64,000 nt of DNA from Candidatus Curtissbacteria bacterium RIFCSPLOWO2_12_FULL_41_16 (GTDB taxonomy: Bacteria > Patescibacteriota > Microgenomatia > Curtissbacterales > GWA2-41-24), in the NCBI GenBank assembly GCA_001776545.1, contig MFBZ01000016.1:1088-65087 (forward strand), in the 5' to 3' direction. The position numbers were made by a program, and so were the translations under genes. Positions 4,116 through 61,015 of this stretch are shown piece after piece. The first letter of the stretch is position 1. Each line of letters starts with the position of its first letter. Below the pieces are notes generated by a model, which was given only the letters and a program-made list of their open reading frames with translations, did not search any database and was not told the DNA's origin.

Positions 4116-4633
4116 TTTGTGATCACGGAGGCCACAGTCGCCTTCGGCGAACCTCGCTCAATTGAGCGGGAAGGTTCTGAGGGCACTGAGTTCTGTGCCT
4201 TCTGTTTTTCTACTGTACTCTCTGTGATCAGTTTTTTATCCCCATACGGGTGTTGGGAGCCTGGATAGATATAGAGTTTTTTAATCATTTGTCTTGCGAG
4301 TTTTGTTTTCGGTAGCATACCGACAACTGCATGTTTGATGAGATCTTCAGGTTTTTTTGCTCTAACTTGCCGGGCGGACCGCTCGTTTAATCCACCGGGG
4401 TAATTTGAATGGTGCCGGTAAAGTTTTTGATTTTCTTTTTTACCAGAAAGGATAACGTCTTTAGCGTTGATAATAACTACATAATCCCCAGTATCCAAAT
4501 GGGGCGTGTAATAATTTTTACTTTTGCCCATTAATATCTTGGCGGTATTTGTGGATAGCCTTCCTAAAATTTTATTTTTGGCATCGATTAGCTGCCAGTT
4601 TCTTTGGATGTCGCCTGATTTGATGTTTTTCAT
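4112..4633 (-). CDS. rplM: 50S ribosomal protein L13
   Basis: L13 core (MKNIKSGDIQRNWQLIDAKNKILGRLST...). The track ORF runs upstream to 4840 and overlaps rplQ; I chose the internal Met at 4633. Confidence 0.85.
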   Translation of the reverse strand: MKNIKSGDIQRNWQLIDAKNKILGRLSTNTAKILMGKSKNYYTPHLDTGDYVVIINAKDVILSGKKENQKLYRHHSNYPGGLNERSARQVRAKKPEDLIKHAVVGMLPKTKLARQMIKKLYIYPGSQHPYGDKKLITESTVEKQKAQNSVPSEPSRSIERGSPKATVASVITK

Positions 4634-4649
4634 GCTAACAAAGATTTCT

Positions 4650-5150
4650 CTAATTTCTTGCCTGTGCGAGATTGCCTGCAGCTTCAGCCGCTGGCGGGCT
4701 AACAACCACTGATTTTGCCGAAGTCTTGCGTGACAACTTTTTCGGCGTCTTATTTTTAGCCTTCGTGCTTTTTGGGACAACAGACTTTTCCTTTTCCCCC
4801 ATTTCAATAAATTCAAGCCTTGCCATCTGGGCAGCATCACCTCGTCTGATGTCTAATTTGATTATTCTCGTGTAACCGCCTATTCTCTTGATATTAGCTC
4901 GCGCAATTTCGCGAGTTAATTTAAGTAAGGCTTGGTTGGTCAGAATAGATGCTAATGATCTTCGCGAATGCAAAGTATCTTTTTTGGCGTCCGTGACCAA
5001 TTTTTCGACAAAGCCGCGCACAAATTTTGCCTTTGCTAGGGTCGTGATAACAGCACCATTTGTTATTAATGAACTGGCCAGGTTGGCACGCAGCGCTTTT
5101 CTGGCGTTGGTATCTCTGGCGAGCTTGCGACCAAATTTTGCGTGTCTCAC
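4650..5150 (-). CDS. rplQ: 50S ribosomal protein L17
   Basis: MRHAKFGRKLARDTNARKALRANLASSLI... is the typical L17 N-terminus. Lys-rich C-terminal extension. Confidence 0.9.
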   Translation of the reverse strand: MRHAKFGRKLARDTNARKALRANLASSLITNGAVITTLAKAKFVRGFVEKLVTDAKKDTLHSRRSLASILTNQALLKLTREIARANIKRIGGYTRIIKLDIRRGDAAQMARLEFIEMGEKEKSVVPKSTKAKNKTPKKLSRKTSAKSVVVSPPAAEAAGNLAQARN

Positions 5151-6067
5151 TTGACATCGACTCCTTTCTCACTTAGTTTTTCTTCAACCAAAGCGATAGA
5201 TTTTGGCCCAAGATTCTTCATTTTTAAAAGATCTTTCTTGTCTTTCTGCAGAAAGTCACCGATCGTCTCAACTTTACTCGATTTTAAACTATTAGTTAAC
5301 CTCACTGGTAAATCAAGTTCTTCCAGGGATGTTTTTAAAACCTCATCGCTTGGTGGCTGACTTGTTTGAGGTTTTTGTTTTTTACTACCTGTTTGAGGTT
5401 GATAAATAGTTATGAAATGATCTACTAAAATTTTTGCCGCCTGTTTTAAGGCAAGAGATGGTTTAATTGTGCCATCGGTGGCTATCTCGATTATTAATTT
5501 GTCGTAGTTGGTAAGTCGGCCAACACGTGTTGCCTCTACTTTATAATTCACGGAAATAATTGGCGAAAAATTAGCGTCAATAGGAATAATTCCGATCTCG
5601 TCAGTTTTTCTCTCTTCGGCAAGTGAATAACCCATGCCTGTTTCGGCAACCAAACGAGCATTAAGTCTTGTTTTGGAATCCGCAAGATGAGCCAAAATTA
5701 AATCACCATTAACAATTTCCACCCCGGCTGCCGGTTCGATATCTTTTGCTTTCACTTCTTTTGGCCCTTTGACATCCAAAGTAAGCCTAACTGGTTTGTC
5801 ACCGGCAATTTTCAGTCTTACATTTTTGAGATTTAAGATAAACTCAACTATATCCTCGGTCATTCCGGGAAGAGAACTGAATTGATGGCGGATGCCGGAG
5901 ATTTTTACCTGCGTGATGGCTGCGCTCGGTAAGGACGTAAGAAGAACCCTGCGCAATGAATTGCCAATAGTATGCCCGTAACCTTGGTCTAATGGTTCAA
6001 TAATAAATTTTCCGAACTCTTGCGTTTCTTTTTCTGTTTCGATTTCAATTTGCGACAAATCGAGCAT
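5147..6067 (-). CDS. rpoA: DNA-directed RNA polymerase subunit alpha
   Basis: N-terminal and C-terminal alpha domain motifs (GHTIGNSLRRVLL; C-terminal helix-hairpin-helix region). 306 aa. Confidence 0.95.
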   Translation of the reverse strand: MLDLSQIEIETEKETQEFGKFIIEPLDQGYGHTIGNSLRRVLLTSLPSAAITQVKISGIRHQFSSLPGMTEDIVEFILNLKNVRLKIAGDKPVRLTLDVKGPKEVKAKDIEPAAGVEIVNGDLILAHLADSKTRLNARLVAETGMGYSLAEERKTDEIGIIPIDANFSPIISVNYKVEATRVGRLTNYDKLIIEIATDGTIKPSLALKQAAKILVDHFITIYQPQTGSKKQKPQTSQPPSDEVLKTSLEELDLPVRLTNSLKSSKVETIGDFLQKDKKDLLKMKNLGPKSIALVEEKLSEKGVDVK

Positions 6068-6089
6068 TTATTTCACCTCCTTTTATGCC

Positions 6090-6133
6090 CTAAGGGGACA
6101 CCTAAGGTTCCTTCTTAGTATTCCCCTTCCTTT
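6090..6133 (-). promoter_or_regulatory. repeated ~44-nt leader element, copy upstream of rpoA
   Basis: On the transcript, AAAGGAAGGGGAAUACUAAGAAGGAACCUUAGGUGUCCCCUUAG. 20/20 identity plus flanking similarity with the copy at 6768-6809. Confidence 0.5.
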
Positions 6134-6151
6134 AAAAATTTTCTTCACGAT

Positions 6152-6760
6152 TCATCTTGAGTAATACTCGACGATTAAACTTTCATTAATCGCCAGATCT
6201 TGCTCGTCACGTTTTGGTCTGGCAACAACTTTTCCGACAGTTGCCTTTTTGGCAAGCCAAGACGGTAATTTTGCATCTTTTGTTTCTTCCTGCAATTTTT
6301 TAATGAAATTTAAATTCGCAGCCTTTGCAGACAGTGAAATAACATCACCTATTTTAACATTATATGAGGAGATCGTCACCTTTTTACCGTTGACCAAAAC
6401 ATGGCCATGGGAGACAAGCTGTCTTGCTTGCGGGCGACTTTTGGCTAAATTTAATCTGTAAACCGCATTATCAAGACGATTTTCCAAAATTTCAAGCAAA
6501 GTTTGGCCGGTTGCGGATTTTTTACTGGAAGCCAATTGGTAGTATTTTTTGAACTGTCTTTCAAGAATTCCATACATTCTTTTGACTTTTTGTTTCTCTC
6601 TTAACTGGATGCCATATTCCGAAAGCTTTTTGCGGCCCTTTGCGCCATGCTGTCCTGGGGGGGCAGCATTCTTTCTGATTACCGGACATTTTGGCGAGCC
6701 ACACAGAGCTACACCTTCCGCTCGACAAAGTTTATGCTTTGGTCCTGTATATCTAGCCAT
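6152..6760 (-). CDS. rpsD: 30S ribosomal protein S4
   Basis: MARYTGPKHKLCRAEG...C...C Zn-finger-type S4 N-terminus and S4 domain. Confidence 0.95.
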   Translation of the reverse strand: MARYTGPKHKLCRAEGVALCGSPKCPVIRKNAAPPGQHGAKGRKKLSEYGIQLREKQKVKRMYGILERQFKKYYQLASSKKSATGQTLLEILENRLDNAVYRLNLAKSRPQARQLVSHGHVLVNGKKVTISSYNVKIGDVISLSAKAANLNFIKKLQEETKDAKLPSWLAKKATVGKVVARPKRDEQDLAINESLIVEYYSR

Positions 6761-6767
6761 GACACTC

Positions 6768-6809
6768 TAAGGGGCAACCAAGATTTCCCCTTAGTATTCC
6801 CCTTCCTTT
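6768..6809 (-). promoter_or_regulatory. repeated ~44-nt leader element, copy upstream of rpsD
   Basis: On the transcript, AAAGGAAGGGGAAUACUAAGGGGAAAUCUUGGUUGCCCCUUAG. Same 20-mer as at 6114-6133. Confidence 0.5.
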
Positions 6810-6838
6810 CATTGGAAATTTGAAATTGGTAATTCTCA

Positions 6839-7665: not shown

Positions 7666-7683
7666 AATATCCTAATTTATCCT
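7666..7683 (-). promoter_or_regulatory. 18-nt element AUUAGGAUAAAUUAGGAU abutting the rpsM start codon
   Basis: Identical 18-mer found abutting the rplC start (20238-20255). It contains tandem AGGA (SD-like) at 10-nt spacing. Confidence 0.5.
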
Positions 7684-7795
7684 AATAAGATTAGTCCGAA
7701 TTTATCCGAATGCTCCCAGTTGATTTCAATTGCTAATTTTGAGAATTGACTATTCGGATTCATTCGGATTATTTTGATTAAGACACATTGGTATT

Positions 7796-7909
7796 TCATC
7801 CCTGTCTTTGCTTATGGCGAGGGTTAGTACAAATCACATAAAGCCGACTTTTACGTTTGACGATTCTACAATTAACGCATCTTTTTTTAACGCTTGCTTG
7901 AACCTTCAT
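7796..7909 (-). CDS. rpmJ: 50S ribosomal protein L36
   Basis: Not in the ORF track (37 aa). Hand translation of the minus strand gives [37 protein letters not shown], the classic L36 Zn ribbon, at the position where L36 normally lies between infA and rpsM. Confidence 0.85.
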
Positions 7910-7959
7910 GGTAAATTCAAAAACTTTTCATTTTTAACTTTTATTCTTAAATTGGCCTC

Positions 7960-9572: not shown

Positions 9573-10849
9573 CTTTTCCTCAGAAAGGAATCATAATCTC
9601 TCATTACTAAGTGCGATTCGATTTTTTTTGTTGTCTCCAGGACAACTGAGACCACGATTAGAAGCCCGGTTCCTCCAATTAGGAGAGTTGCGACTCCGGT
9701 TAGGCTTTGGCCGATTGATGGCAGAATCGCAATAAGCCCCAAAAAGACTGCTCCGAAGAGGGTTATTCTTAATGAAATATAATCTAGGTGTGATTTAGTG
9801 GGAGAACCGGGTCTAATTCCAGGAACAAAACCGCCTTGTTTCATAAGCATTTCCGAGATTTGTTTAGTGTTAAAAGCGACAGTGGTGTAAAAATAGGTAA
9901 AAGCCACCACTAACAAAAAGTAGGTTACGTTGTAGAGAACATCTTGGGGATTGAAAAGCCTTTGGATTTCCTGGGCGATGTTGGCAACTAAAACGCTGGG
10001 GGACCTTTCGAAAAATTTGGCAAATGTTGTCGGCAAAAGAATTAAGGAAACAGCAAAGATTATTGGGATAACGCCGGCTTGGTTAATTCTAAGTGGAATA
10101 TAGCTCGCAACTGGCGTTTCAGTCGTGCTTCTTCTGGCGTAATGGACGGTAATCGGACGCTTAGCCTCTGTTACAATAACGATTGAGACAATGACAATTA
10201 CGGCCATCGCCATAAAAATCAGGATGTTTTTTATTTGTGTTGGATCAAAAATTGAAACAGTTTGGGCAAGACCAATAGGTAATCTACCAGCAATACCCGC
10301 AAAAATTATCATTGAGATTCCATTGCCTATTCCTTTTTCGGAAATTAGTTCACCCAACCACATCAAAAAAATTGTGCCTGCCGTCATGGTGATAACGAGA
10401 GCTAAAAGAATCAGCGGTGATAGGACACTTATAATGCCGGAATTGCGTAGTAAAATATACATTCCAAAAGCCTGAACGGCAGCCAGAGGGACGGTTAGAT
10501 AACGAGTGTACTGATTAATCTTCTCGTGTCCTTGCTCGCCCTCTTTGGCTAGCTCTTCAAGTTTTGGAAAAACCAATTGCAAGAGTTGCATGATAATGCT
10601 GGCATTGATGTACGGATTCAGCCCTAATGATAGGACTGAAAAATTGGCTAAGGTGCCGCCAGAAAAAAGATCTAAAAGCGAAAGTAGTTGACTTTCGGCA
10701 AATAATCTTTTAAGTGATGCAATATCGACACCAGGAACCGGCACATGGGCAAATAGCCTAAAGATAAGAAAAATAAAAAAGCTAAAAAGAATTCTTTTTC
10801 TTAAATCTTTAACTTTAAAAATCTTTAATAAGGTTTGTAGATAATTCAC
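9569..10849 (-). CDS. secY: preprotein translocase subunit SecY
   Basis: 426 aa, ten hydrophobic segments, canonical position after rplO. Confidence 0.95.
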
Positions 10850-10876
10850 AACTGTACTTCAGGGCAAGCCTTGCGA

Positions 10877-11482
10877 TCACCCCTGCTTCGCGGGGATCCT
10901 GTTTTTTCCCCTTAATACTTCCTTTCTCCTGGTGGACAAAATTGGTTTGCCTAAAGCAGTTCCAATTTTGGAATTTTGATTTCTGATATTTGCCCGCTCC
11001 GCTTCGCTTTGCGAGGCGGGGGATTTTTGATTCAGTATTGTCACTTTTCCGCCGGCTTTTTGAATTTTCTCTGCTGCACTTTTGGAAGTCGGTAAATTTA
11101 TGACGAGTGCTCTTGATAAATTACCATCTCCCAGGATTTTTACGCCATAATTTTTGGCGTCGTTTTTTTCAACTATACCGAACTTGACAAGTGCTTCAAG
11201 GTCCACATTTTGGCAGTTTTCGGGTAGCAGATTCAATGCTCCTAAATTGACAACTAGCGGTTTTTGGGAAATTTTAGGATTCCCTATACCTCTTCTTAAA
11301 GGAAGCCTTTTAATAAGAGGTCTTGTTCCGCCTTCGAAATGTGGATGGGTAATTTTCATTTTACCTCTGGCTTTTTGACCTTTGGTCCCGCGGCCGCCTG
11401 TTTTTCCTTTCCCTGACGACTGACCACGACCGATCCTTTTTGCTCTTTTTTGGGTTATTTTTGGCAAGGTATTTAAATTCAT
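10877..11482 (-). CDS. rplO: 50S ribosomal protein L15 with ~55-aa C-terminal extension
   Basis: RIGRGQSSGKGKTGGRGTKGQKARG motif. The extension carries GC-rich hairpin-forming DNA (10985-11025, 10855-10900). Confidence 0.9.
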   Translation of the reverse strand: MNLNTLPKITQKRAKRIGRGQSSGKGKTGGRGTKGQKARGKMKITHPHFEGGTRPLIKRLPLRRGIGNPKISQKPLVVNLGALNLLPENCQNVDLEALVKFGIVEKNDAKNYGVKILGDGNLSRALVINLPTSKSAAEKIQKAGGKVTILNQKSPASQSEAERANIRNQNSKIGTALGKPILSTRRKEVLRGKNRIPAKQG

Positions 11483-11940
11483 GGCATTAAACTTTCTAAA
11501 GCTGCAAGCGTTGCGTAGACATTTGACGCCTGATTTTTGGTCCCCATCACTTTACTGGAGATATTTCTAATTCCAGCCGCTTCAACCACAACCCGAACTG
11601 CTCCGCCGGCAATAATTCCTGATCCTTCTGGTGCAGGCTTGAGAAGAACCTTGGCCGCGCCTCTTTTAAGAAGTACATCATGAGGAATGGTACCTTTGAC
11701 GATCGGCACGGTGATCAAATGTTTCTTAGCATAAGTCGCACCCTTCCTGATTGAGGAAGAAACGTCTCTGGCTTTGCCCAAACCAACGCCAACTTTACCT
11801 TTTTTGTCACCAACAACTACAAGTACCGAAAAACCGATTCGATTACCGCCCTTTGTTTTTTTTGAAACTCGATTCACTTGGATGACTCTTTCGTCAAATT
11901 CTTTTGCAAATCCTATTAGTTGCTCTTCTTGACTATTCAT
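11479..11940 (-). CDS. rpsE: 30S ribosomal protein S5
   Basis: S5 dsRBD and C-terminal domain. Start trimmed to MNSQEEQL. No rpmD (L30) between rpsE and rplO. Confidence 0.9.
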   Translation of the reverse strand: MNSQEEQLIGFAKEFDERVIQVNRVSKKTKGGNRIGFSVLVVVGDKKGKVGVGLGKARDVSSSIRKGATYAKKHLITVPIVKGTIPHDVLLKRGAAKVLLKPAPEGSGIIAGGAVRVVVEAAGIRNISSKVMGTKNQASNVYATLAALESLMP

Positions 11941-11953
11941 TTTAAGCTTCTGG

Positions 11954-12295
11954 CTAAAAAAGTAGGCCCTCCTCCCTTGCACCTTCGGCTAAAGCTTTTA
12001 CGCGTCCATGATAGAAGTATCCAGCGCGGTCATAAACTACTTTTTTGATATTTTTGCTCTTTGCAGCTTTGGCCAAATTAATCCCAACTTCCTTTGCTTT
12101 CTGGCATCTTGTACCTTTTTTGATTTTTGCGTCAGAAGCGAAAGCGATAGTAGCTGCTTTTTGATCATCTATTAGTTGCGCATATATATGTTTATTTGAA
12201 CGAAAGACAACTATTCTCGGAACGTTTTTGGCTCGCGCTATTTTTTTTCTTATCCTGTCATGTCTTAGGACTTTCTGCTTCCTTCTATCTTTCAT
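11954..12295 (-). CDS. rplR: 50S ribosomal protein L18
   Basis: L18 family (RIVVFRSNKHIYAQLIDD...GYFYHGRVKALAEGAREEGL). Confidence 0.9.
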   Translation of the reverse strand: MKDRRKQKVLRHDRIRKKIARAKNVPRIVVFRSNKHIYAQLIDDQKAATIAFASDAKIKKGTRCQKAKEVGINLAKAAKSKNIKKVVYDRAGYFYHGRVKALAEGAREEGLLF

Positions 12296-12843
12296 GTTGA
12301 ACTCTGGGCAGCTTTAACTGCCTTACCAGCCTTTCGTCTGATTACTTCTTCTGAGTATTTTATTCCCTTACCTTTATAAGGTTCAGGCGGTCTTGCTCTT
12401 CTAATTCTGGCGGCTACTTCACCAACCAATGCTTTATCGCAACCAGAAACAATAATTTTGTTTTCTTTGGTTTCTATTTGGACACCGCTTGTAGGTGTGA
12501 TGATAACTGGATGAGAATAACCAATATTTAACACTAGATTCTCCCCTTGTTTTGTAGCTCTATAGCCAACACCGATGATTTCCAAAACTTTTTGGTGGCC
12601 TTCTGTCACGCCTTTGACCATGTTGGCAATAATACTTCTTGTTAAGCCGTGAAGGGATTTGGCAAATTTACTCTCAGATTTTCTGGCCACATTAATTTTA
12701 TCCTGAAAAACCTCAACAGTAACTTCCGGACGAAACTGAAATGAAAGATTGCCTTTTGGTCCAGAGATCTTAACCTGGGAATCGAAAGTTTCTACTTTAA
12801 TCCCTTGAGGAATTATAACTGGTTGTTTGCCTATTTTAGACAT
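12292..12843 (-). CDS. rplF: 50S ribosomal protein L6
   Basis: MSKIGKQPVIIPQGIKV... is the typical L6 start. Track ORF trimmed from 12885. Confidence 0.9.
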   Translation of the reverse strand: MSKIGKQPVIIPQGIKVETFDSQVKISGPKGNLSFQFRPEVTVEVFQDKINVARKSESKFAKSLHGLTRSIIANMVKGVTEGHQKVLEIIGVGYRATKQGENLVLNIGYSHPVIITPTSGVQIETKENKIIVSGCDKALVGEVAARIRRARPPEPYKGKGIKYSEEVIRRKAGKAVKAAQSST

Positions 12844-12913
12844 AGACTCTCCTTTCTGAGGAAATTTCCCGGCTTCGCAGGGCAAGTAATTTTATCTGAT
12901 ATCTGATATTTAT

Positions 12914-13363
12914 TTACCATGCTTCGCAAATTACCTCCCCTCCAAGTTTTTTGGCTTTGGCCTGTTCACCCGTCATCACTCCTTGGGGCGTTGAGACAAG
13001 AACCAGACCTCTTTTGCCTTTTACTTTTTTGATATTTTTGCTCTTGGTGTAAATCCTCAGGCCTGGTTTAGAAACTTTTTTGATCTCGTGTAATTTTGGC
13101 TTTTGATTCTCATATAAAAGACTGATAATAATTTTTGCCCGCCCGCTGCCTGCCTGCCGGCGAGGCAGGGCGAGGTGGGCTTGTGATTTTTTGACGATAC
13201 CCACAAATTTTTCTTTTTCCAAAACCTTAGCAACTTCCGATTTAAACTTTGAGTAAGGTACCAAAACTTCCGGCTTTTTAGCCATGTATCCATTTTTAAT
13301 TGTGACAAGCATATCAGCTATTGGATCCACAAAAAATCTCCTTTCGCCGAATTTTAATTTCAA
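12914..13363 (-). CDS. rpsH: 30S ribosomal protein S8 with internal insertion
   Basis: DPIADMLVTIKNG N-terminus and C-terminal LSTPQGVMTG..A.KLGGEVICEAW. An extra segment HLALPRRQAGSGRAK is encoded by a GC-rich palindromic stretch at 13141-13180. Confidence 0.9.
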   Translation of the reverse strand: MKLKFGERRFFVDPIADMLVTIKNGYMAKKPEVLVPYSKFKSEVAKVLEKEKFVGIVKKSQAHLALPRRQAGSGRAKIIISLLYENQKPKLHEIKKVSKPGLRIYTKSKNIKKVKGKRGLVLVSTPQGVMTGEQAKAKKLGGEVICEAW

Positions 13364-13378
13364 ATTTAAAATTGATCA

Positions 13379-13561
13379 TTACCATGATGCCTTTTTGACT
13401 CCAGGTATTTCTCCGCGATGTGCAAGATCCCTAAAACAAATTCGACAAATTCCGAATTTACGGATATAAGCTCTTGGCCTACCGCAAAGATGACAACGAT
13501 TTCGGTGCCGGCTGGCAAATTTTTGTTTTTTCTCATTTTTGATAATCTTAGATTTTTTGGC
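13379..13561 (-). CDS. rpsN: 30S ribosomal protein S14 type Z (zinc-binding)
   Basis: [23 protein letters not shown]4 motif, ~60 aa. Confidence 0.9.
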
Positions 13562-13586
13562 CATGATTGCCTCCGGCAATATTAGT

Positions 13587-14123
13587 TTACTTCTTAAAAG
13601 GTAATCCTAAGAGTTCAAAAAGTCTTTGGGACTTTTTCTGATCACTATTTTTGACGACTATGGTGACGACTAGTCCTCTGACTTTGTCGATTTTGGCGTA
13701 ATCTACTTCTGGAAAAATAATCTGCTCAGATAAGCCCAGACTGTAGTTGCCGAATTTATCAAATTTTGTCGTGGTAAGACCCCGAAAATCGCGCATTCTT
13801 GGCATAACAATGGCAATTAATTTTTCCAAAAACTGCCAAGCTCTTTTCCTTCGTAGAGTAACCATAACACCAATGGGGTCGTTTTTTTTTAATTTAAAGT
13901 TCGAGATTGCTCTTTTGGCACGGGCGACTTTTGGTTTTTGACCTGTAATTTGAGTTAGCTGATCTTTGACTTTTTCTAAAATATCATGACTGGTGATTGC
14001 TTCAGCTACTCCCATATTTAAGACTATTTTTTCCATTTGAGGCAGAGCCAAATCATTTTTTATACCAAATTCCTCCTTGAGTTTTGGTTTAACCTCCTCT
14101 TTATATTTAGTTAAAATATTCAT
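13587..14123 (-). CDS. rplE: 50S ribosomal protein L5
   Basis: L5 family (EKIVLNMGV...). Start trimmed to [11 protein letters not shown]. Confidence 0.9.
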
Positions 14124-14428
14124 ACTAGGCGTCCTTGACATTTTTTACAAATTCTATTTTTGATCTTGCCTTCTTTGACAAATCCTACTCTGGTAGTTTG
14201 AGCGCATTTTGGACAAATAAGAGCAACCTTGCTAACCGGAATGGGCCGAGTAATTTCGTAAATGCCGGAAGCTTTGGTTCTAGTAACTTTCTTGTGTCTT
14301 TTATAAATATTAGCTCCGGCAACAACAAGTTTATTTTCAAAGACCAGGACTTTTTCAACCTTGCCTTTGATGCCTTTATCTCGACCAGCTGTAACTTGTA
14401 CTTGATCACCTACTTTGAACTTAAACAT
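14120..14428 (-). CDS. rplX: 50S ribosomal protein L24 (KOW) with C-terminal C4 zinc ribbon
   Basis: KOW motif FKVGDQVQVTAGRDKGIKGKV. C-terminal CPKC-x17-CKKC. Confidence 0.9.
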   Translation of the reverse strand: MFKFKVGDQVQVTAGRDKGIKGKVEKVLVFENKLVVAGANIYKRHKKVTRTKASGIYEITRPIPVSKVALICPKCAQTTRVGFVKEGKIKNRICKKCQGRLV

Positions 14429-14797
14429 TTAAATAACCTCCTGGGCCATAGAAATGATTTTGGTAAAACCTTTATTTTTTAACTCTTGAGCTACCGGACC
14501 AAAAATTCTGGTTGCGAGGGGTATTCCTTTCTCATCGCAAACAACAGCGGCATTGTCTGAAAATCTGATATAAGAACCGTCCGGTCTTCTCGTTTCTTTT
14601 CTAGTCCTGACAATAACTGCTTTGACTATTTGATGATCTTTAACTTGACCGGTGGGGCTTGCTCCCCTAACTACACAGGTAACAATTTCTCCAATGCCGG
14701 CAAATTTTTTATGGGACATGCCAGGCATACCAATAATAACCAAGTTTCTGGCACCGCTATTGTCGGCAGCTGCCAAAACTGACCTTCTTAAAAGCAT
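14429..14797 (-). CDS. rplN: 50S ribosomal protein L14
   Basis: ADNSGARNLV...IRFSDNAAV motifs. Confidence 0.95.
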   Translation of the reverse strand: MLLRRSVLAAADNSGARNLVIIGMPGMSHKKFAGIGEIVTCVVRGASPTGQVKDHQIVKAVIVRTRKETRRPDGSYIRFSDNAAVVCDEKGIPLATRIFGPVAQELKNKGFTKIISMAQEVI

Positions 14798-15040
14798 CTA
14801 TCCTAATACCTCCAAAACCTTAAAATTGACGTCTTTTGAGATCGGCCTGGTTTCAACTATTTTTACAATGCTCCCGACTTTTGCTCCAAAATTATCGTGT
14901 ACTTTGTATCTTGTGGTTTTTTTGATTCGTTTTTTGTAAAGCGGGTGCAAGGTTTGCGAGACAACCTCAACAACTATTGTTTTATTCATCTTATTTGAAA
15001 CCACGGTACCAATTTTGGTATTAATATTGTTTTTCTTCAT
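14798..15040 (-). CDS. rpsQ: 30S ribosomal protein S17
   Basis: G.VVSNKMNKT..V.V....HP.Y.K. is the S17 pattern. Confidence 0.9.
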   Translation of the reverse strand: MKKNNINTKIGTVVSNKMNKTIVVEVVSQTLHPLYKKRIKKTTRYKVHDNFGAKVGSIVKIVETRPISKDVNFKVLEVLG

Positions 15041-15258
15041 TTTTGATTTTTGATCACTTCCATAAAATTTTTCTCAGCTATTATAGTTTTAATCTTGGCG
15101 ATGTCTTTGCGCTTTTGATTTGCAAGATGGACATTTTTTATTTTGCCTATTTTAAGCTTGAGACGCGTCTGTTTTTCTTCTTTTTCTTGATCGGCAATAA
15201 TTTTTTTTAGATTCTCAATACTTTTATTTTTTAATTCGTTCAAATCTTTATTTTTCAT
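15037..15258 (-). CDS. rpmC: 50S ribosomal protein L29
   Basis: Small Lys/Glu-rich helical protein at the L29 position between L16 and S17. Start trimmed to [13 protein letters not shown]. Confidence 0.8.
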
Positions 15259-15280
15259 CGCAATCACCGTCTTTTTGTGT

Positions 15281-15685
15281 TCATCTTGTAACAACTCTTG
15301 TTTTTATTGGTAATTTATGGGCGGCAAGCCTTAATGCTTCTTGGGCAACATTTGCTTCAACGGCACCCATCTCAAAAAGGATCATGCCTGGTTTGACAAC
15401 TGCTACATACTCGGAAACATCGCCTTTGCCTGAACCCATTCTAGTCTCTGCGGGTTTTTTGGTGACCGGTTTGTCTGGAAATATCCTGATCCAAATACGG
15501 CCACCTCTTTTGGTGTAATGGGTCATGGCACGTCTGGCTGCCTCGATTTGTCTAGCGGTCACCCAAGCACTCTCTTCACTTTTTAAACCATAAGAGCCAA
15601 ACGAGAGGATTGTTCCACGACCGGCAATGCCTTTTCTTTTACCTCTGAACTGTTTTCTATATTTTGCCCTTTTTGGTGCAAGCAT
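15281..15685 (-). CDS. rplP: 50S ribosomal protein L16
   Basis: [19 protein letters not shown]...[18 protein letters not shown] motifs. Confidence 0.95.
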
Positions 15686-15880
15686 AACTTTCCCTTTCCC
15701 TTAATAAACTACTCACGGCCGATTCGGTCTGAGCCTCACGGTCGAAGACCTGAAGGCCATAGTTCTCGCTCGCGTGGAATAGACAATAGACAAAATTGTC
15801 CAAGCTAAGCTTGTTACAATTTTGGGATTTGTTTTTTTTGAATTTTGATTTGTCATTTTGATGTTTGATTTTTGATTTTG

Positions 15881-16519
15881 TTACGTTTCTCCTTTATATA
15901 TCCAAACCTTAACACCGACGGTGCCTGACTTTGGAACTTGAGCATCGACTTTAGCAAAATCAATTTCTGCCCTAATTGTGTGGAGTGGAACGGCACCAAT
16001 TTTAACCGTCTCTCGTCTGGCTATTTCTGATCCTCCAAGTCTGCCAGAGAGCGAGATACGCACTCCTTTGGCGCCTGATCTTCTAACTCTTTCTTGCGTT
16101 TGATTCATTATCCTTCTAAAAGGAATTCGCCTGCCCAGTTGGTCTGCAATAGATTGAGCAATTAAATAAGCATCAAGGTCCGGTGATTTAATCTCTTCAA
16201 ATCTAATCTCTAGTTTGTCGGAATCTACAATTTTTAATTTCTTGACTAGTGCCGCTTTTAACTGTTCGATACCGGTTCCACCCCGACCGATGGCGATACC
16301 CGGCCTGGCGACATGGACGATGGCAACTCGTTTGTCAAAAGAACGCTCGATTTCAACTTTGGAAATCCCAGCGGGTTTTAGATGTTCCATGATAAATTTC
16401 CTTATTTTTTGATCCTCCAGAAGATATTGGGAATAAAGACCGTTTTTGGCAAACCATCTGGAGCTCCAGGTATAAATGTTTCCTAGCCTAAAGCCGATCG
16501 GGTTAACTTTTTGGCCCAT
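15881..16519 (-). CDS. rpsC: 30S ribosomal protein S3
   Basis: MGQKVNPIGFRLG N-terminus, KH domain and S3 C-terminal domain. Track ORF trimmed from 16567. Confidence 0.9.
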   Translation of the reverse strand: MGQKVNPIGFRLGNIYTWSSRWFAKNGLYSQYLLEDQKIRKFIMEHLKPAGISKVEIERSFDKRVAIVHVARPGIAIGRGGTGIEQLKAALVKKLKIVDSDKLEIRFEEIKSPDLDAYLIAQSIADQLGRRIPFRRIMNQTQERVRRSGAKGVRISLSGRLGGSEIARRETVKIGAVPLHTIRAEIDFAKVDAQVPKSGTVGVKVWIYKGET

Positions 16520-16654
16520 GACAACCTCGCTTTCGTTCGTTAGGTGAAAAGTGAAAAGTGCCGCCAAGGGCGAGCCTTGCTCGCCTCGCTGCGAAGCGGG
16601 TCTTTGACGGGAAAAGTGAAAAGTTATGGTAATTTAAAATTAATTTGAAATTTT

Positions 16655-17086
16655 TCATTGTAATTTTGAACTTTGCATTTTGATTTTTGAATTTTGATTT
16701 TCAGAAACAACTTTATTGTCTTTTGATACTTTGTAAGCAGTAGCTGTGTTTTTCGTTTCTCCCTCCAGAATCACTCTTATATGGCTGGTTCTTCTTAAAA
16801 TTGGATGGGCTCTGCCCCTGGCAACTGCCCGGAAGCGTTTAAAAACAGGTCCCTTGCCAACTAAGATTTCTTTAAAGGCCAAGGAGTTCTGGTCAAGATT
16901 AAAATTGTTTTTGGCGTTGGCAATTGCCGAGGCAATTACTTTTTTAAGAATCGGCGCCGATCGCTTATTGACAAAATTTAAAATTTGAACAGCTTTTTGT
17001 GGAGGCGTCTTTTTTATTTGATCCACAACAAGTCGTACCTTTTCAGGTGATACTCGGACTGATTTGGCTACTGCTGTTACTTCCAT
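16655..17086 (-). CDS. rplV: 50S ribosomal protein L22 with C-terminal extension
   Basis: L22 family core, about 30 aa of extra C-terminal tail. Confidence 0.9.
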   Translation of the reverse strand: MEVTAVAKSVRVSPEKVRLVVDQIKKTPPQKAVQILNFVNKRSAPILKKVIASAIANAKNNFNLDQNSLAFKEILVGKGPVFKRFRAVARGRAHPILRRTSHIRVILEGETKNTATAYKVSKDNKVVSENQNSKIKMQSSKLQ

Positions 17087-17108
17087 ACTCTAATCTCCTT
17101 GTCGCGTT

Positions 17109-17393
17109 TTATTTCTTAGTTGTTGATTTCTCGGTAATTTTCCCGTGCCCGCGAAATACTCTGGTTGGGGCAAATTCACCAAGTCTATGACCAACCATTG
17201 GTTCGCTGATAAAAACACTGATGAAAGTACGCCCATTGTGAATCGAAAAAGTATGATTGACAAATTCCGGCGGAATTTGGCTTGCTCTGGCCCAGGTTTT
17301 GATTGGCTCTTTTTTACCCGATTGTTTTTGAGCCATAACTTTTTTTAACAACTTTTGATCCACATACGGACCTTTTTTACTTGATCTTGCCAT
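17109..17393 (-). CDS. rpsS: 30S ribosomal protein S19
   Basis: [17 protein letters not shown] motif. Confidence 0.95.
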
Positions 17394-20237: not shown

Positions 20238-20255
20238 CCTAATTTATCCTAATTT
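20238..20255 (-). promoter_or_regulatory. 18-nt element AUUAGGAUAAAUUAGGAU abutting the rplC start codon
   Basis: Identical to the element before rpsM. Confidence 0.5.
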
Positions 20256-20284
20256 TTACCAAAAAGGCAGGACTCCTTAAATTC

Positions 20285-20313
20285 TCCCCAATCGAGTCAG
20301 GCTCGATTGGGGA
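20285..20313 (-). promoter_or_regulatory. 11-bp perfect GC-rich hairpin in the rpsJ-rplC spacer (no U-tract)
   Basis: tccccaatcga-gtcaggc-tcgattgggga. Confidence 0.45.
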
Positions 20314-20502
20314 CCCCGATAAGAAAAATCTCCTATGGAGCTTTCAGGTGTCCTACCGATTAACAAATCGTCAATTGTTGAGCGTTAATTGTTAATGGTT
20401 ATTTTTATTTAATTTTAGCAAGTACCTCCAAATTTTCTGTAATTCTAATCTATCCGAATATAATTAATCCTAATGAATCCGAATATTAGGATAAATTCGC
20501 AT

Positions 20503-26812: not shown

Positions 26813-29800
26813 TCACTCTATTTTTGCCCGGTCAGGGCTTGTGGGTATTAATCTTCCAATTATGACGTTTTCTTTAAGACCCAGAAGACGATCGTCTTTA
26901 CCTTCAATGGCAGCATCGGTTAAAACACGGGTTGTTTCTTGGAAAGAAGCTGCAGAAAGAAAACTATCGGTATAAAGCGCCGCTCTGGTTATTCCCAGAA
27001 TAACAACTTGGGCAGTTGCTGGTTCACCGCCTTCGGCTAAAACTTTGGCATTTTCTTCTTGAAACTTGTTTTTACCGATTAGTTCACTTGGCAGAAAGAC
27101 AGTATCGCCAGATGACTCGATTCTAACCTTCTCGCTCATTTTTCGGACAATTACCTCGAAATGTTTGTCGTGGATGACTACCCCTTGGCTTTCGTAAACC
27201 TCTTGGGTACCGTCGATGATGTATTTTTGTGCTATTTCCAGGCCTGAAATTGCTAAGATCTCTTTAACGTCCAAGTATCCTGTCGAAAGTGCAGTGCCGG
27301 CGGTAATTAATTGTCCATCGGTTACGGCAAGTTCTGCTGTCGGCAGAGCCGTATATTCCCTTTCTTGTGACGGCTTAAGATTAGTACTTTTGATTCTTAT
27401 ACTATAACCGTCTTTCGTTTCCTCTATTTTAACCTTACCTGTAATTTCCGAAATCTGGGCGACGTATTTTGGAGTACGGACTTCAAAAAGTTCTTCGACT
27501 CTTGGCAAGCCTTGCGTGATATCGAGACCAACAATTCCTCCCGTATGAAAAGTTCTCATGGTCAACTGAGTCCCCGGCTCGCCTATCGACTGGGCAGCTA
27601 TGACTCCAACGGGGGTACCAAGCGCCACAAGGGTCCTGGCGACTAAGTCCATCCCGTAACATTTGGCGCACAAGCCATATTTTGCTTCACAGGTGATAGG
27701 TGAATAGACTTGGATTTTTTCGATATCGCTTTTTTCCAAATCTTGTGCAATGTTTTCGGTAAGTAGCGTGCCTTTTGGTGCTAAAACTTTTTTGCTTTTG
27801 GGAGAAATAACATCAGCTGCTGTAATCCTGCCCAGCAGCCTTGTGGAAAACGGCGCTCGCCGTTTGTCTTGTCGAGAAATAGTAATACCTTTTTGGGTAG
27901 CGCAATCTTCCAATCTGACAATGGCATCATGGGCAACATCAACGAGCCTTCTGGTAAGGTATCCACTTTCCGCAGTTTTGATGGCACGATCTGCCAGTCC
28001 TTTTCTGGCTCCTCGGGCACTGGTGAAATATTCAAAAACAGAAAGGCCCTCTCTAAAGTTTGATTTGATCGGCAAAGGGACAATACTGCCGGAGGGGTCT
28101 GTAACTAGACCTCGAATTGCAGCAAGCTGTTTGATTTGTTCGGCGGTCGCCCGAGAACCACCTGAATCAGAGATAATTTTGATAGAATTGTCCTTTGGTA
28201 AGTTCTTCCAAGTAAGATCGGCAAGCTCGTTTGTTGTTGAAAGCCAAACTTCTTGCGAAAGGCGTTTTTCTTCATCACGGGTGATTAAACCAAGCTTAAA
28301 GTTTTTTTCAATAGACTCGACTTCTTTTTCTGCTTTTTCGATGATTTTCGATTTTTCATCGACAATCATACAATCGAAAACGGAAACGGAAAGACCCGAG
28401 AAGGTGGCACCTTCAAAACCAAAACTTTTAAGTTTATCGATAAGTTCGATTACTTCATCTTCTTTCAGGGTGTTGATGCTGGTATCTATTAACCTTTTAA
28501 TTGTTGAGGCAGTAATTGGTTCGTTAATGAACTTAAGAGACTGGGGAAGTTGAATGTTGAAAAGAACTCTACCTGCCGAGGTTGTCAGGGTTTCTTTGCC
28601 AATTTTTACCTGGATCTGTTGTCTGGTTTTGATTTTAGCAGACTCTTTGGCAAGAATGACCTCGGTTTCGCTTTCAAAAACATTATCGTATGGAGGTGTT
28701 TTTGTGTCTAACAAGGTGAGATAATAAACACCGAGGGCCATTTCTTTGTTTGGCAAAGTGATCGGTGAGCCATCTGCTGGCCTGAGCAGATTTTTGCCAG
28801 CCATCATTAGCGCGATTGCTTCTTCTTGCGATTTTAAAGAAAGGGGAACGTGGACGGCCATTTGATCTCCGTCAAAATCCGCATTAAAGCCCGCACAGAT
28901 ACAAGGATGAATTCTAATGGCATCGCCCTCTATCAAAATTGGATAGAATGCCTGGATTCCCAGACGATGCAGAGTCGGAGCTCGGTTTAAAAGAATTGGA
29001 TGGTTTTTAGTAATTTCTTCTAAGATGTCCCAAATTTCTCCACTTCTTCGTTCTAAATAATGCTTGGCACTTTTAACGTTTGGTGCAAGCGCAAGGGTTA
29101 TTATTTCACGCAGCACAAATGGTTTAAACATCTCAAGTGCCATCTCTTTGGGAATGCCGGCTTGGTTGAGGTTTAACTCGGGTCCGACGACAATCACAGA
29201 CCTACCCGAATAATCGACTCTTTTGCCTAAAAGATTTTGTCTGAATCTTCCTTGTTTACCTCTGAGCATGTCGGAGAGCGAGCGTAGTGCAGGAGTAAGT
29301 CTGGTTGCTTTAGTTCGTTGTGAATCGATGAGGGCATCAACGGCTTCCTGCAGCATTCTTTTTTCATTCCTAAGGATAATTTCTGGCGCACCCAATTCAA
29401 TAAGTTTTTTGAGTCGGTTATTTCTGTTTATTACCCTTCGGTAAAGATCATTAAGATCGCTAGTTGCAAATCTACCGCCAGAAAGTTGAACCATTGGTCG
29501 CAGATCTGGTGGTAAAACCGGCAAAATTTTGGCGATCATATAGGTCGGTAAAATGCCAGCTTTGCGCATATTTTCAACAACTCTGAGTCTCTTGGTAGCT
29601 TTAAGATGTCTTTGGCCGGTAGTTCTGGTGATTTCTTCCTTAAGTGAAGCTGATAATTGGGAAAGGTCAATTTTTTCAATGATTGCCAGTAAGGCTTCGG
29701 CACCCATGCCGACTTTAAAGAAATCGCAAGAATTGTAATCGCCTAACTTAAGATATTCATCTTCTGAAAGAAGATCACGATGTTTAATGGATCTGGTCAT

Positions 29801-51477: not shown

Positions 51478-51855
51478 ATGCGTATGGTGATTGCCGATGA
51501 TTGGTCGATAGTTTTTTACACAACAAAGAGCGGTCGCAATCCTGTCCAGGAGTTCTTAGACACTCTTGATGCAAAAACCAACTCTAGATTTATATGGTCG
51601 ATTAGGGAACTACATCGTCGCAATGTTCATGCCCGAAAACCATTAGTAAAACATATCGAAGAAAAGTTGCGGGAATTGCGGGAAGAAAGTATGGGTAATA
51701 TTCACAGAATTATATATGTATTTTTCACTGGCCGAAAGATTATTCTATTGCATGGTTTTCAGAAAAAGTCACGACAAACGCCGCGTCGAGAAATTGACAT
51801 CGCATCGTCTCGACTTAAAGACTTTATAGACAGGCAGGGAGGTGAAAATGACTAA
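51478..51855 (+). CDS. higB: HigB-like toxin (Gp49/RelE family)
   Basis: VFYTTKSGRNPVQEFLDTLD....I...I..L ... IYVFFTGRKIILLHGFQKKSRQTPRREI is the Gp49-like HigB signature. Toxin-first gene order. Confidence 0.75.
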   Translation: MRMVIADDWSIVFYTTKSGRNPVQEFLDTLDAKTNSRFIWSIRELHRRNVHARKPLVKHIEEKLRELREESMGNIHRIIYVFFTGRKIILLHGFQKKSRQTPRREIDIASSRLKDFIDRQGGEND

Positions 51856-52186
51856 ACTAGATTTAATTAAAAAGGGAGAACTTGCATATAAGAAGTGGGA
51901 GAAAAAATTCCTTTCCGATTCCGAGAATCGTCGTATTTACGAGGAAGAAGCTGCCAAAAAAGAACTTTGGCTACAATTAGTGGAAGCTCGACAAGCTGCG
52001 GGGCTTACACAGCAACAACTTGCAAAAAGACTTGGTGTTTCACAAGCGCAAGTGGCTAGAGTGGAAAAGCGTGGTTATGATGCCTATACTTTAACTTCAC
52101 TGCGTCGCTATGTTAACGCTTTAGGTAAGGGCTTTTCTCTAAAAGTTATTATAGAAGAACAACGTATGTATTCTATTAACAATTAA
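51842..52186 (+). CDS. higA: HigA-like antitoxin (XRE-family HTH)
   Basis: LVEARQAAGLTQQQLAKRLGVSQAQVARVEKRGY HTH_XRE. 14-nt overlap with higB. Confidence 0.75.
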   Translation: MKMTKLDLIKKGELAYKKWEKKFLSDSENRRIYEEEAAKKELWLQLVEARQAAGLTQQQLAKRLGVSQAQVARVEKRGYDAYTLTSLRRYVNALGKGFSLKVIIEEQRMYSINN

Positions 52187-60148: not shown

Positions 60149-61015
60149 TTAAGATCTTTCCAACTCCTCAAGAAGTCTTTTTTGGTCGTGGGAGAGTTTT
60201 GTGGGGATGCGGATCCGGATAATGACGTAATGGTCGCCGCGGGCATGACCTGCGACACGGTGAACCCCTTTGTTTCTTAGTCTAATTTGAGTGCCGGGTT
60301 GGGTACCTGCAGGAATGCGAATTTTGACTGGACCATCAATAGTTTCAATATTGGCAACGGTCCCCAGCGCTGCTTGGGCGAAAGAAACTTCATGCTCACT
60401 AATAATATCGTAACCTCTTCTTTTAAACTTAGGGTGTGGGGAAACTTGACAGACAATAACAAAGTTTGAAAAACGGATTTCGGAACCGTCGTCAACACCA
60501 GCTGGAATTTTAATTTTTTGTCTTTTGCCCGCTTCGCCGCGAGGCGAGCCATCTATTTCAATTTCTTTCTGTGTGCCATGAACTGCCTCCATAAAGTCTA
60601 AATTGAGGATATAGCGAGAAAGACGAGCACGTCTGCCGAAAGGCGATCTTTCTCCGAAGACCATTTCAAAAATATCAAAAGGGTCAGAAAAACCGCCGAA
60701 ATCAAAGTCAAAATCGCCGGGTGAGCCAGTCCAAGTGTAAGTTCGAAATCCGCCTGGCCCTGCGCTAGCACCGCCGAAGCCGCCACCTGGCTGAAACGCT
60801 GCGTGACCAAATTGATCGTAGGCGGACTTTTTCTGAGGGTCAGATAAAACTTGATAGGCTTCGTTTGTTTCTTTAAACTTTTCTTCCGCACCTGCTGATT
60901 TGTTGACGTCTGGGTGATACTTGCGCGCATTGACCCGGTAGGCTTTTTTTATTTCCTCGGGGGTTGCTGATTTGGAAACTCCCAAAATTTCATAGTAATC
61001 TGCTTCTGTTGCCAT
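60149..61015 (-). CDS. dnaJ: DnaJ-like co-chaperone (J domain + G/F region + C-terminal domains; no Cys-rich zinc-finger domain)
   Basis: J domain DYYEILGV...HPD. Gly/Phe-rich linker. No CxxCxGxG repeats. 288 aa. Confidence 0.85.

Follow-up and report, generated by a model that had tools for sequence, protein, structure and literature searches.

Tiny GC-rich imperfect palindromes as a probable family of inserted elements in Candidatus Curtissbacteria and other bacteria of the candidate phyla radiation

Introduction

Repetitive extragenic palindromic (REP) elements are 20–40 bp long and lie mostly between genes, although some of them are located inside genes, notably repair genes (Di Nocera et al., PMC3733652). 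Rickettsia palindromic elements (RPEs) are palindromic repeats found in frame in unrelated Rickettsia housekeeping genes, where the encoded peptides are tolerated (PMC10969869, PMC3733652). Here we describe a recurrent 21-nt imperfect palindrome, CTCGCCTCGC-N-GCGAAGCGGG (termed the core), from a stretch of 64,000 nucleotides of Candidatus Curtissbacteria bacterium RIFCSPLOWO2_12_FULL_41_16 (contig MFBZ01000016.1; the whole stretch is referred to as the window), where GC-rich palindromic motifs had been noticed in the ribosomal-protein operon. These motifs probably represent a family of tiny, non-autonomous, GC-rich imperfect palindromes that became inserted in AT-rich genomes of bacteria of the candidate phyla radiation (CPR), Microgenomates included. 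A discrete 21-nt unit was found to be present or absent at orthologous sites, with no target-site duplication in the clean cases, and the core was found in both orientations, in six reading frames, inside other GC palindromes, in phase within heptamer arrays, and in several candidate phyla.

The core resembles REPs and REPINs in being a short, GC-rich, imperfect and dispersed palindrome that is often paired or nested into larger hairpins and lacks a target-site duplication. Its hosts also include repair genes, i.e., uvrA, a uvrD-like gene, recJ and fpg. However, the GTAG/CGTC tag that characterizes REPs (PMC3733652) is absent from GCTCGCCTCGCNGCGAAGCGGGC and its reverse complement, about 43% of the copies listed are located inside open reading frames (ORFs), and the unit is exactly 21 nt, so that the reading frame is kept. 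One sequence is shared by several candidate phyla, in contrast to one family per species for REPs, and exact copies per genome appear few. No gene for a REP-associated tyrosine transposase (RAYT) or an IS200-like protein was found near any copy, using one probe on flanks of a few kb. The core is similar to RPEs in that both are inserted in frame into unrelated protein-coding genes of reduced genomes, but RPEs are about 100–150 bp long and encode a conserved peptide of 30–50 amino acids, whereas the core is 5–7 times shorter (21 nt, 7 amino acids). Furthermore, RPEs carry the CGTC tag and are restricted to Rickettsia.

The small dispersed repeats (SDRs) of heterocystous cyanobacteria are reportedly 21–27 nt long and hairpin-forming, with no known mobilizing enzyme. 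They are said to be found often within tandem heptamers and other small repeats, and their insertions to have been deduced from orthologous regions. By this description, the core is like an SDR in its length of 21 nt, its hairpin formation, its heptamer-array context, its nesting, the deduction of insertions from orthologous regions and the lack of a known mobilizing enzyme. It is unlike one in that the hosts are CPR bacteria and not cyanobacteria, that it is GC-rich in an AT-rich genome, and that it frequently resides in frame in essential genes. [quoted passage not shown] No parent IS for the core was found in the window or in the sampled flanks, and the target-site duplication that flanks MITE copies was absent in the atpA and dnaJ pairs described below.

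Yeast mitochondrial GC clusters and the double-hairpin elements of Allomyces and other fungi are GC-rich palindromes or double hairpins of about 30–80 bp in very AT-rich genomes. They are located in spacers, in rRNA variable regions and in frame in protein genes, are polymorphic between strains, and move by an unknown mechanism. The core family likewise consists of short GC-rich palindromic modules at spacers and in-frame gene sites of an AT-rich genome. The fungal elements differ in belonging to eukaryote organelles and in having other sequences, and GC clusters were reported with short AT-rich target duplications. Finally, d(GCGAAGC) forms an unusually stable single-stranded DNA mini-hairpin (PMC13037366). 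This sequence is present in the right half of the core and in the centers of two of the window palindromes (E1 and E3), but it is a structural motif and not an element family.

No published description of the 21-nt element was found in a literature search that covered few subscription journals. In full text the core sequence was encountered only as primer coincidences, and the search returned no work in which REP or MITE elements are connected to Patescibacteria or Microgenomates. CPR genomes are tiny, streamlined and not known for dispersed repeats, and here extra residues are found in S8, SecA, ATP synthase alpha, UvrA, DnaJ and GAPDH. The element would represent a novel way for proteins and operons to vary in the CPR and would serve as a marker for lineage and population studies. 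It would also be a clean system for studying how tiny repeats such as REPs, SDRs and mitochondrial GC clusters move, for which the mechanism is mostly unknown. In addition, it accounts for oddities met by annotators: long spacers in ribosomal operons, elongated ribosomal proteins, and GC islands that can be mistaken for structured RNAs or terminators.

Results

The 21-nt Core Is a Dispersed Sequence

The core is usually preceded by a G and followed by a C, giving a 23-nt extended form. Nine of its ten centre-symmetric positions pair (one of them as G-U), and the tenth is a C-A mismatch. The left half is (CTCGC)x2, and the GCGAAGC mini-hairpin is located off centre. The core corresponds to seven codons and is free of stop codons in all six frames.

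Two copies in the window, E5 upstream of rpsC and E6 inside dnaJ 44 kb away, were 21/22 identical on opposite strands (blastn, E = 4e-4). The 23-nt extended consensus was matched by E6 with no mismatch and by E5 with one, and 40-nt block shuffles gave 0.05 sites at five mismatches and none nearer. When each palindromic element was compared with the window by sensitive blastn, the best non-self matches were mostly other elements.

A scan of metagenome contigs with the 21-mer (20 specified bases) placed the core at no fewer than 122 sites (at least 108 distinct flank contexts) in at least 120 contigs. The same pattern had no match in 2.9 million viral contigs, which served as negative control. 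Among the contigs listed, 104 of 120 had a GC content below 47% and three were at or above 55%. Independent laboratories had obtained them in projects on aquifers, groundwater, sediment and soil, and they included one Sanger-era record. The named carriers were Candidatus Curtissbacteria, Levybacteria, Shapirobacteria and Woesebacteria, and one Tara metagenome-assembled genome labelled 'Parcubacteria group'. Fifteen of 16 proteins inferred from core-bearing contigs were found letter for letter in a public protein collection. It is unlikely that the core is an assembly artefact, since it is found in frame, in both Sanger and Illumina data from independent laboratories, and as diverged orthologous copies. 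The suggestion of a preliminary description that the operon motifs are REP-like, miniature inserted elements of a dispersed family was supported, and neither of the outcomes that it had named as refuting, absence of the family elsewhere and a similarity within chance, was observed.

The Unit Is Present or Absent at Orthologous Sites

For atpA, an empty site reading GAC-AAA was found in contig L211, and the corresponding filled site, GAC-TCGCCTCGCGGCGAAGCGGGT-AAA, in a Levybacterium (L123). Thirteen AtpA homologs at 70–86% identity lacked the seven residues and read EFED-KTRGL, while a homolog at 87% identity had a decayed seven-residue version. The atpA copy in L212 keeps 13 of the 21 core bases. 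For dnaJ, the empty site GGC-CGA in L216 corresponds to GGC-TCGCCTCGCGGCGAAGCGGGC-AAA in the window, and among 17 close DnaJ homologs eight carried GSPR(FA)GEAG and nine did not. A third filled dnaJ allele (L215) has six extra nucleotides exactly at the centre of the palindrome. In both the atpA and the dnaJ pair exactly 21 nt were gained and, apart from a boundary ambiguity of 1–3 nt, nothing of 2 nt or longer was duplicated.

The ribosomal protein S8 varies in 21-nt steps. It is 124 amino acids long in most Curtissbacteria, 131 in some, and 138 in the window and in L086 (81% identical). The codons that are present in the window but not in the 131-aa form of L087 encode LPRRQAG, have a GC content of 0.81 and correspond to CTGCCTCGCCGGCAGGCAGGC. 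In a genome of 41% GC, G or C is the last base in 12 of the 15 codons across the S8 insert, a foreign composition, and the place of insertion falls at a gap in the alignment to solved S8 structures. The inner module of the insert is wholly different between the window and L086.

The operon of the window was further compared with three other Curtissbacteria operons (L087, L089, and L090). The following junctions and proteins were longer in the window:

rplV-rpsC junction: spacer of 134 nt in the window and 53 nt in L087; in L089 and L090 the genes overlap by 17 nt
rpsH-rplF spacer: 70 nt in the window; 6–8 nt in L087, L089 and L090
L15: 201 amino acids in the window; 138–181 in relatives
L13: 173 amino acids in the window; 136–145 in relatives

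This lengthening of spacers and proteins relative to relatives indicates that the window elements are insertions, and the expansion of the spacers was confined to this lineage. The equivalent rpsH-rplF spacer of L086 contains an unrelated AT-rich hairpin instead. The rplV-rpsC spacer of L087 contains an uninterrupted (TTCTCAA)x4 array, and the L22 tail of L087 has a GC hairpin of its own.

Copies Inside Coding Genes

Using the presence of at least 40 open codons on both sides as threshold, 52 of the 122 copies listed (about 43%) were inside ORFs; 38 were ambiguous and 32 non-coding. Host genes encode UvrA, SecA (with the copy beside the DEVD motif), AtpA, a UvrD-like helicase, RecJ, GAPDH (gap), Fpg, RsmH, ProRS (proS), chorismate synthase (aroC), a Mur ligase and a P-type ATPase. 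The ORF-embedded copies were in forward orientation in 34 cases and in reverse in 18, and all six frames were used. The commonest reading was SPRGEA (17/52), with the variable nucleotide N being G in 13 of these 17, which gives Gly and not Cys. The RFAARR reading was found for one copy. Residence in so many unrelated housekeeping genes resembles the behaviour of a selfish element. This frame usage together with the excess of SPRGEA is expected if insertion is blind to the frame and is followed by selection on the encoded peptide.

Elements in the Window

The window has a GC content of 41.2%, in line with the context of about 40% assumed in the preliminary description, whose five GC-rich segments and 14-nt repeat were all found in place. 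It carries an S10-spc-alpha ribosomal-protein cluster on the minus strand that runs from rpsJ to rplO and continues with secY, adk, map, infA, rpsM, rpsK, rpsD, rpoA and rplQ, followed by rplM and rpsI. The homologs of its S8 and DnaJ point to Candidatus Curtissbacteria (CPR/Microgenomates), and its DnaJ is 100% identical to that of Curtissbacteria bin RIFCSPHIGHO2_01_FULL_41. Perfect GC-rich hairpins were more frequent in the window than in shuffled sequence (15 compared to 3.6 ± 2.1). The elements and their parts are as follows:

4124..4207, minus strand: window-specific 28-aa C-terminal tail of L13 with palindrome TCGCCGAAGGCGA (gamma-type arm); GC island at 4124–4159
10861..10895, minus strand: E1, plus-strand sequences AGGGCAAGCCTTGC and CCCCTGCTTCGCGGGG; rplO stop codon and 27-nt spacer before secY
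10992..11022, minus strand: E2, degenerate core-like copy, plus-strand sequence GCCCGCTCCGCTTCGCTTTGCGAGGCGGGGG; in frame in the L15 C-terminal tail
12868..12886, minus strand: E3, mini-palindrome CCCTGCGAAGCCGGG, plus-strand sequence CCCGGCTTCGCAGGGCAAG; in the 70-nt rpsH-rplF spacer
13137..13180, minus strand: E4, GC-rich in-frame insertion of 14 codons in rpsH with core-like halves GCCCACCTCGCC ... AGCGGGCGGGCA
13148..13168, minus strand: inner 'alpha' palindrome of E4, CTGCCTCGCCGGCAGGCAGGC, 21 nt, perfect; absent from the 131-aa S8 of L087
16546..16559, plus strand: (GAAAAGT)x2 heptamer dimer, left of the E5 composite
16560..16579, plus strand: left outer arm of E5, GCCGCCAAGG ('gamma' arm) plus GCGAGCCTTG; composite fold
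16580..16600, plus strand: E5, canonical core CTCGCCTCGCTGCGAAGCGGG; rplV-rpsC spacer, antisense to the operon
16601..16610, plus strand: right outer arm of E5, TCTTTGACGG, complementary to the left gamma arm
16611..16624, plus strand: (GAAAAGT)x2 heptamer dimer, right of the E5 composite
60528..60548, minus strand: E6, canonical core CTCGCCTCGCGGCGAAGCGGG; in frame inside dnaJ, reads (G)SPRGEAG

The family membership of E5 and E6 is secure. In E5, GCGAGCCTTG base-pairs with the initial nucleotides of the core and resembles the terminus of an inverted, truncated core, and the composite GCCGCC...GACGG at 16560–16610 folds at -14.1 kcal/mol as DNA. Membership is good for E4, in which the core-like outer halves surround a second 21-nt palindrome, and moderate for E2. 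The sense strand of E2, CCCCCGCCTCGCAAAGCGAAGCGGAGCGGGC, is part of an L15 C-terminal tail of 50–60 amino acids. Over 36 nt and with one indel, E2 was 72% identical to E6 (E = 0.17); over 20 nt it was 85% identical to E5. The copies in rpsH and rplO, which are nested or degenerate, had E-values of 0.17–1.2 to other copies.

E1, E3 and the L13 tail are tentative members. E1 consists of the mini-palindrome CCCCGCGAAGCAGGGG, which includes the rplO stop codon, and of GCAAGGCTTGC within the spacer before secY. It was identical to E5 at 24 of 34 positions and to E3 at 13 of 15. The 15-nt pattern CC[CT]NGCGAAGCNGGG was found only in E1 and E3 in 772 kb of sampled sequence (0.0 expected), and the two form a separate mini-family of two copies. 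The arm CGCCGAAGGCG, which is similar to the L13-tail palindrome, abuts the core in L148, and the L13-tail palindrome is a probable further member.

The core GGGC(A/G)AGCCTTGC that had been proposed as shared by all five operon motifs turned out to be common to the secY and rpsC copies only, i.e., E1 and E5, and was rejected as core of the family; its 13-mer is also found inside rpoC. This exact 13-mer of E1, GGCAAGCCTTGCG, recurs at 27504–27516 in the rpoC coding region, probably by coincidence. The GCGAAGC motif was rejected as enriched in its own right (nine occurrences in the whole window, 6.2 expected).

Nesting, Flanking Sequences and Heptamer Arrays

The base before the core was G or A in 105 of 116 sites listed, and the base after it C or T in 93 of 116. 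Several sets of palindromic arms were found around the core. Alpha arms, CCTGCCTG[core]CCGGCAGGCAGG, were present in eight contigs (L091, L093, L103, L105, L143, L165, L207, and L209). Beta arms, CCCGCCTTG[core]C.GCGAGGCAGG, were present in five contigs, with an 'empty' beta palindrome in L184. Gamma-type arms, CCGCCWWWGGCG, flank cores in L107, L129, L145 and L148 as they do around E5. Counted in the 772 kb of sampled sequence, the modules were enriched (16 compared to 0.1 expected, 7 to 0, and 14 to 2.1), with 16 to 0.1 for the CCGCCWWWGGCG-type arms. Stacked half-cores were found in L158, L124, L125, L157 and L204, and the reverse nesting, with alpha inside core-like halves, in the S8 gene of the window.

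The unit of 21 nt equals three heptamers. Deleting it restored an in-phase array of period 7 at nine of the 122 sites listed (0.07 expected), while no array of period 5, 6, 8 or 10 was found across the junction among these sites. This across-junction test was used since one-sided detection of arrays was too strict (two sites). Direct repeats of at least 7 nt in the 20-nt flanks were found at 13 of 116 sites, compared to 1.75 in the control, and proved to be heptamer arrays. The direct repeat gaaaagtgaaaagt previously reported around the rpsC copy is indeed present on both sides of E5, but it is not a simple duplication: each side consists of the GAAAAGT heptamer twice. By its sequence, the gaaaagtgaaaagt pair is best described as a heptamer array with the whole E5 composite inside. 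Its earlier interpretation as a target-site duplication was rejected, in view of the heptamer array and of the clean insertions of exactly 21 nt without duplication in atpA and dnaJ.

In L184, an 800-nt non-coding region (6000–6800) contains three GC modules. L184, L102 and L202 share a conserved long hairpin context, CTACAATACT..ATCCNCTACG.GGAA[core]TTCGCCGTRGGCGAT..AGTATTGTAG, with the core at the apex. This context may be an unannotated structured RNA with the element in its terminal loop; it had no Rfam match at gathering score.

Discussion

Proposed Mode of Spread

A copy-and-insert process at the DNA level, carried out by an enzyme encoded elsewhere, would explain the spread of the unit. 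Insertion would probably proceed via a single-stranded hairpin intermediate into transiently unpaired DNA, for which palindrome loops, slipped heptamer repeats and A-rich tracts are the proposed targets. Harmful insertions would be purged, and survivors would remain in spacers, protein loops, tails and frames encoding harmless peptides, SPRGEAG being the commonest. The operon copies would most likely be neutral passengers that lengthen spacers, add hairpins to the polycistronic mRNA, add 14 residues to an S8 loop and contribute to the L15 and L13 tails. There are precedents in the IS200/IS605 elements, which insert without target duplication, and in the REP elements, which are moved by RAYT transposases.

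It is conceivable, albeit doubtful, that an undescribed, dedicated and sequence-specific insertion system common to CPR lineages, either an enzyme or a templated process, writes one defined stop-free palindrome of seven codons into unpaired DNA without duplication, some copies, as in dnaJ, being constrained at the DNA level. Such a system would go beyond one more REP family: short sequences would move in a novel way and thereby remodel essential proteins of minimal genomes.

A number of observations weigh against insertion of a mobile family. Polymorphism between strains had been suggested in the preliminary description as a sign of insertion, but five JGI (Joint Genome Institute) Rifle contigs of the same population (L081–L085), 99.9% identical to the window, had no indels at the elements, and current mobility is therefore unsupported. 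No transposase was found in the window by Pfam analysis of unassigned ORFs. An IS200 Y1_Tnp probe (validated against PF01797, E = 3e-38) gave no tblastn match better than E = 7 in about 900 kb, a search that covered the window and a few kb around each copy with one probe sequence. A second exact copy was found in only two of 120 fetched stretches, and the 64-kb window has two exact and about five degenerate or related copies; such sparse exact copies per genome are unlike a recent burst. The core of dnaJ was 21/21 identical in two species whose dnaJ genes were 73% identical, which points to either a constraint on DNA or RNA or repeated insertion at the same site and is not expected of a purely neutral passenger. 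This core is perfect while the copies in atpA and S8 decay or turn over, and a host function or a hotspot might therefore provide an explanation. The core alone folds at -6.4 kcal/mol as DNA (z = -0.9 compared to shuffles), so that it was rejected as an exceptional hairpin by itself. Finally, E1, E2 and E3 match other copies with E = 0.2–4 only, a weak core match.

Alternative Explanations

The perfect dnaJ core, the occurrence of one identical sequence in several candidate phyla, the few exact copies per genome, the use of both orientations and a near-palindrome in which nine of ten centre-symmetric positions can pair would all suit a site recognized by a conserved DNA-binding protein of the host, comparable to parS, matS, Noc or DNA-uptake sequences, that is kept by selection or biased recombination. 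We nevertheless consider such a site an unlikely explanation. The core appears relative to orthologs as a discrete 21-nt insertion and not as point-mutated native sequence, it is nested in other palindromes and stacked as half-copies, and it comes with an entire group of GC palindromes, related yet distinct. Furthermore, some orthologous copies decay freely, as seen for atpA in L212 (13/21) and for the inner S8 module in the window and L086. An explanation confined to the operon, in which the hairpins are selected cis-acting RNA elements (mRNA stabilizers, processing sites, attenuators, coupling elements or autoregulatory sites), is improbable. The hairpins and spacers are absent from the same junctions of other Curtissbacteria, with an unrelated AT-rich hairpin in the rpsH-rplF spacer of L086, and the canonical copy before rpsC lies antisense with respect to the operon, the dnaJ, S8 and L15 copies being sense. 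The core is also found inside coding regions of unrelated genes in six frames. This is despite three copies being located in intercistronic spacers directly upstream of secY, rplF and rpsC, and despite stable RNA folds of the composites (-11 to -30 kcal/mol); stabilization of upstream mRNA is a known effect of REP hairpins (summarized in PMC3733652). There was no match in Rfam 15, whether for the entire window at gathering score or for 10500–17200 at E ≤ 10, the tRNA scan found nothing, and no U-tract follows the hairpins on the sense strand. Sense-strand terminators were rejected, since only 10997–11021 and 10881–10895 scored, on the plus strand and thus antisense, and the total of 15 compares to 14.6 in shuffles. 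The translational-coupling or protein-binding role that had been envisaged for the operon copies found no support, the core being present in both orientations and inside unrelated genes.

GC palindromes might also arise in place, by template switching, hairpin-primed synthesis or slippage of short repeats, with no movement involved. The six extra nucleotides at the core centre in L215 look like centre-symmetric growth, left and right halves are stacked in L158, and both the association with tandem heptamers and the (CTCGC)x2 structure of the left half would fit. As an origin of the family this is very improbable, since the same 21-mer at 108 or more unrelated sites in different genes and lineages is not producible locally; the changes that copies undergo once inserted may well be due to local processes. 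That the resemblance merely reflects chance similarity of GC-rich coding or terminator segments has almost no probability left. The bare GCGAAGC count and the E-values of E1–E3 speak for chance, but the match between E5 and E6, the block shuffles and the mostly low-GC metagenome contigs set against the absence from viral contigs speak against it. For the core, chance is refuted; for E1 and E3, which are individual weak members, it may account for their likeness to the core.

Other Repeats and Genes in the Window

A purine-rich leader motif, AAAGGAAGGGGAATACTAAGGGGAAATCTTGGTTGCCCCTTAG, was found upstream of rpsD and rpoA (6761–6838 and 6068–6151, minus strand) and could form a pseudoknot. Weaker leader copies of the AAAGGAAGGGGAATACTAAGGGGAAATCTTGGTTGCCCCTTAG type are located at 10905–10945 and 15690–15715, and a close relative, GAATACCAAGGGGAAACCTTGGTGCCCCCTTGG, precedes rplP in L089 and L090. 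Judged by sequence, the leader motif may be a translation-initiation or regulatory RNA element; it had no match in Rfam.

The rplO gene directly follows rpsE with no rpmD (L30) gene between them (10877–11982), which is usual for the CPR. The L15 reading frame has no stop until 10877, giving the 201-aa protein. Its tail reads through a degenerate copy of the leader motif, which suggests that the tail derives from a spacer that has come to be translated. A-rich low-complexity repeats, AAATCAAAATTCAAAAATCAAAAT on the sense strand, adjoin the GC elements at 15822–15879, 16630–16701 and 10966–10990, and repeats of this type make up the L22 C-terminal tail as well as the beginning of the tail of L15.

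The rpsC-rplP spacer is unusually long (125–250 nt) in each of the four Curtissbacteria operons, being located at 15686–15880 in the window, 2668–2792 in L087, 5797–6045 in L089 and 7383–7578 in L090. A block of about 70 nt, TCACCCTTGCGRGATYTTCGCAACTACYGAAATAGTTTTTTCAGTAGTGCT, is conserved between the spacers of L089 and L090, and the spacer of the window has a GC-rich structured segment of its own at 15700–15790. Repeats of ATTCGGAT(A/G)AAT and TTAGGATAAAT were found in the long spacers of the window at 20238–20502 (S10-L3) and 7666–7959 (upstream of infA/rpmJ), and also in the rpsC-rplP region of L087 (2660–2720). They have the appearance of a further intergenic dispersed repeat, or of an operator-like motif of the lineage. 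The S10-L3 spacer also contains a perfect 12-bp hairpin at 20285–20313.

Genes for a Gp49/HigB-like toxin and an Xre-type helix-turn-helix antitoxin are located at 51478–52186 on the plus strand, opposite to the surrounding genes, and likely constitute a toxin-antitoxin pair. A similar pair adjoins dnaJ in L215. In the related Curtissbacterium contig L214, a gene for an IS1595-family DDE transposase (4153–4941) is inserted between dnaJ and nusA at a site that is empty in L216 and in the window, which indicates that ordinary IS elements are also active in the Curtissbacteria group.

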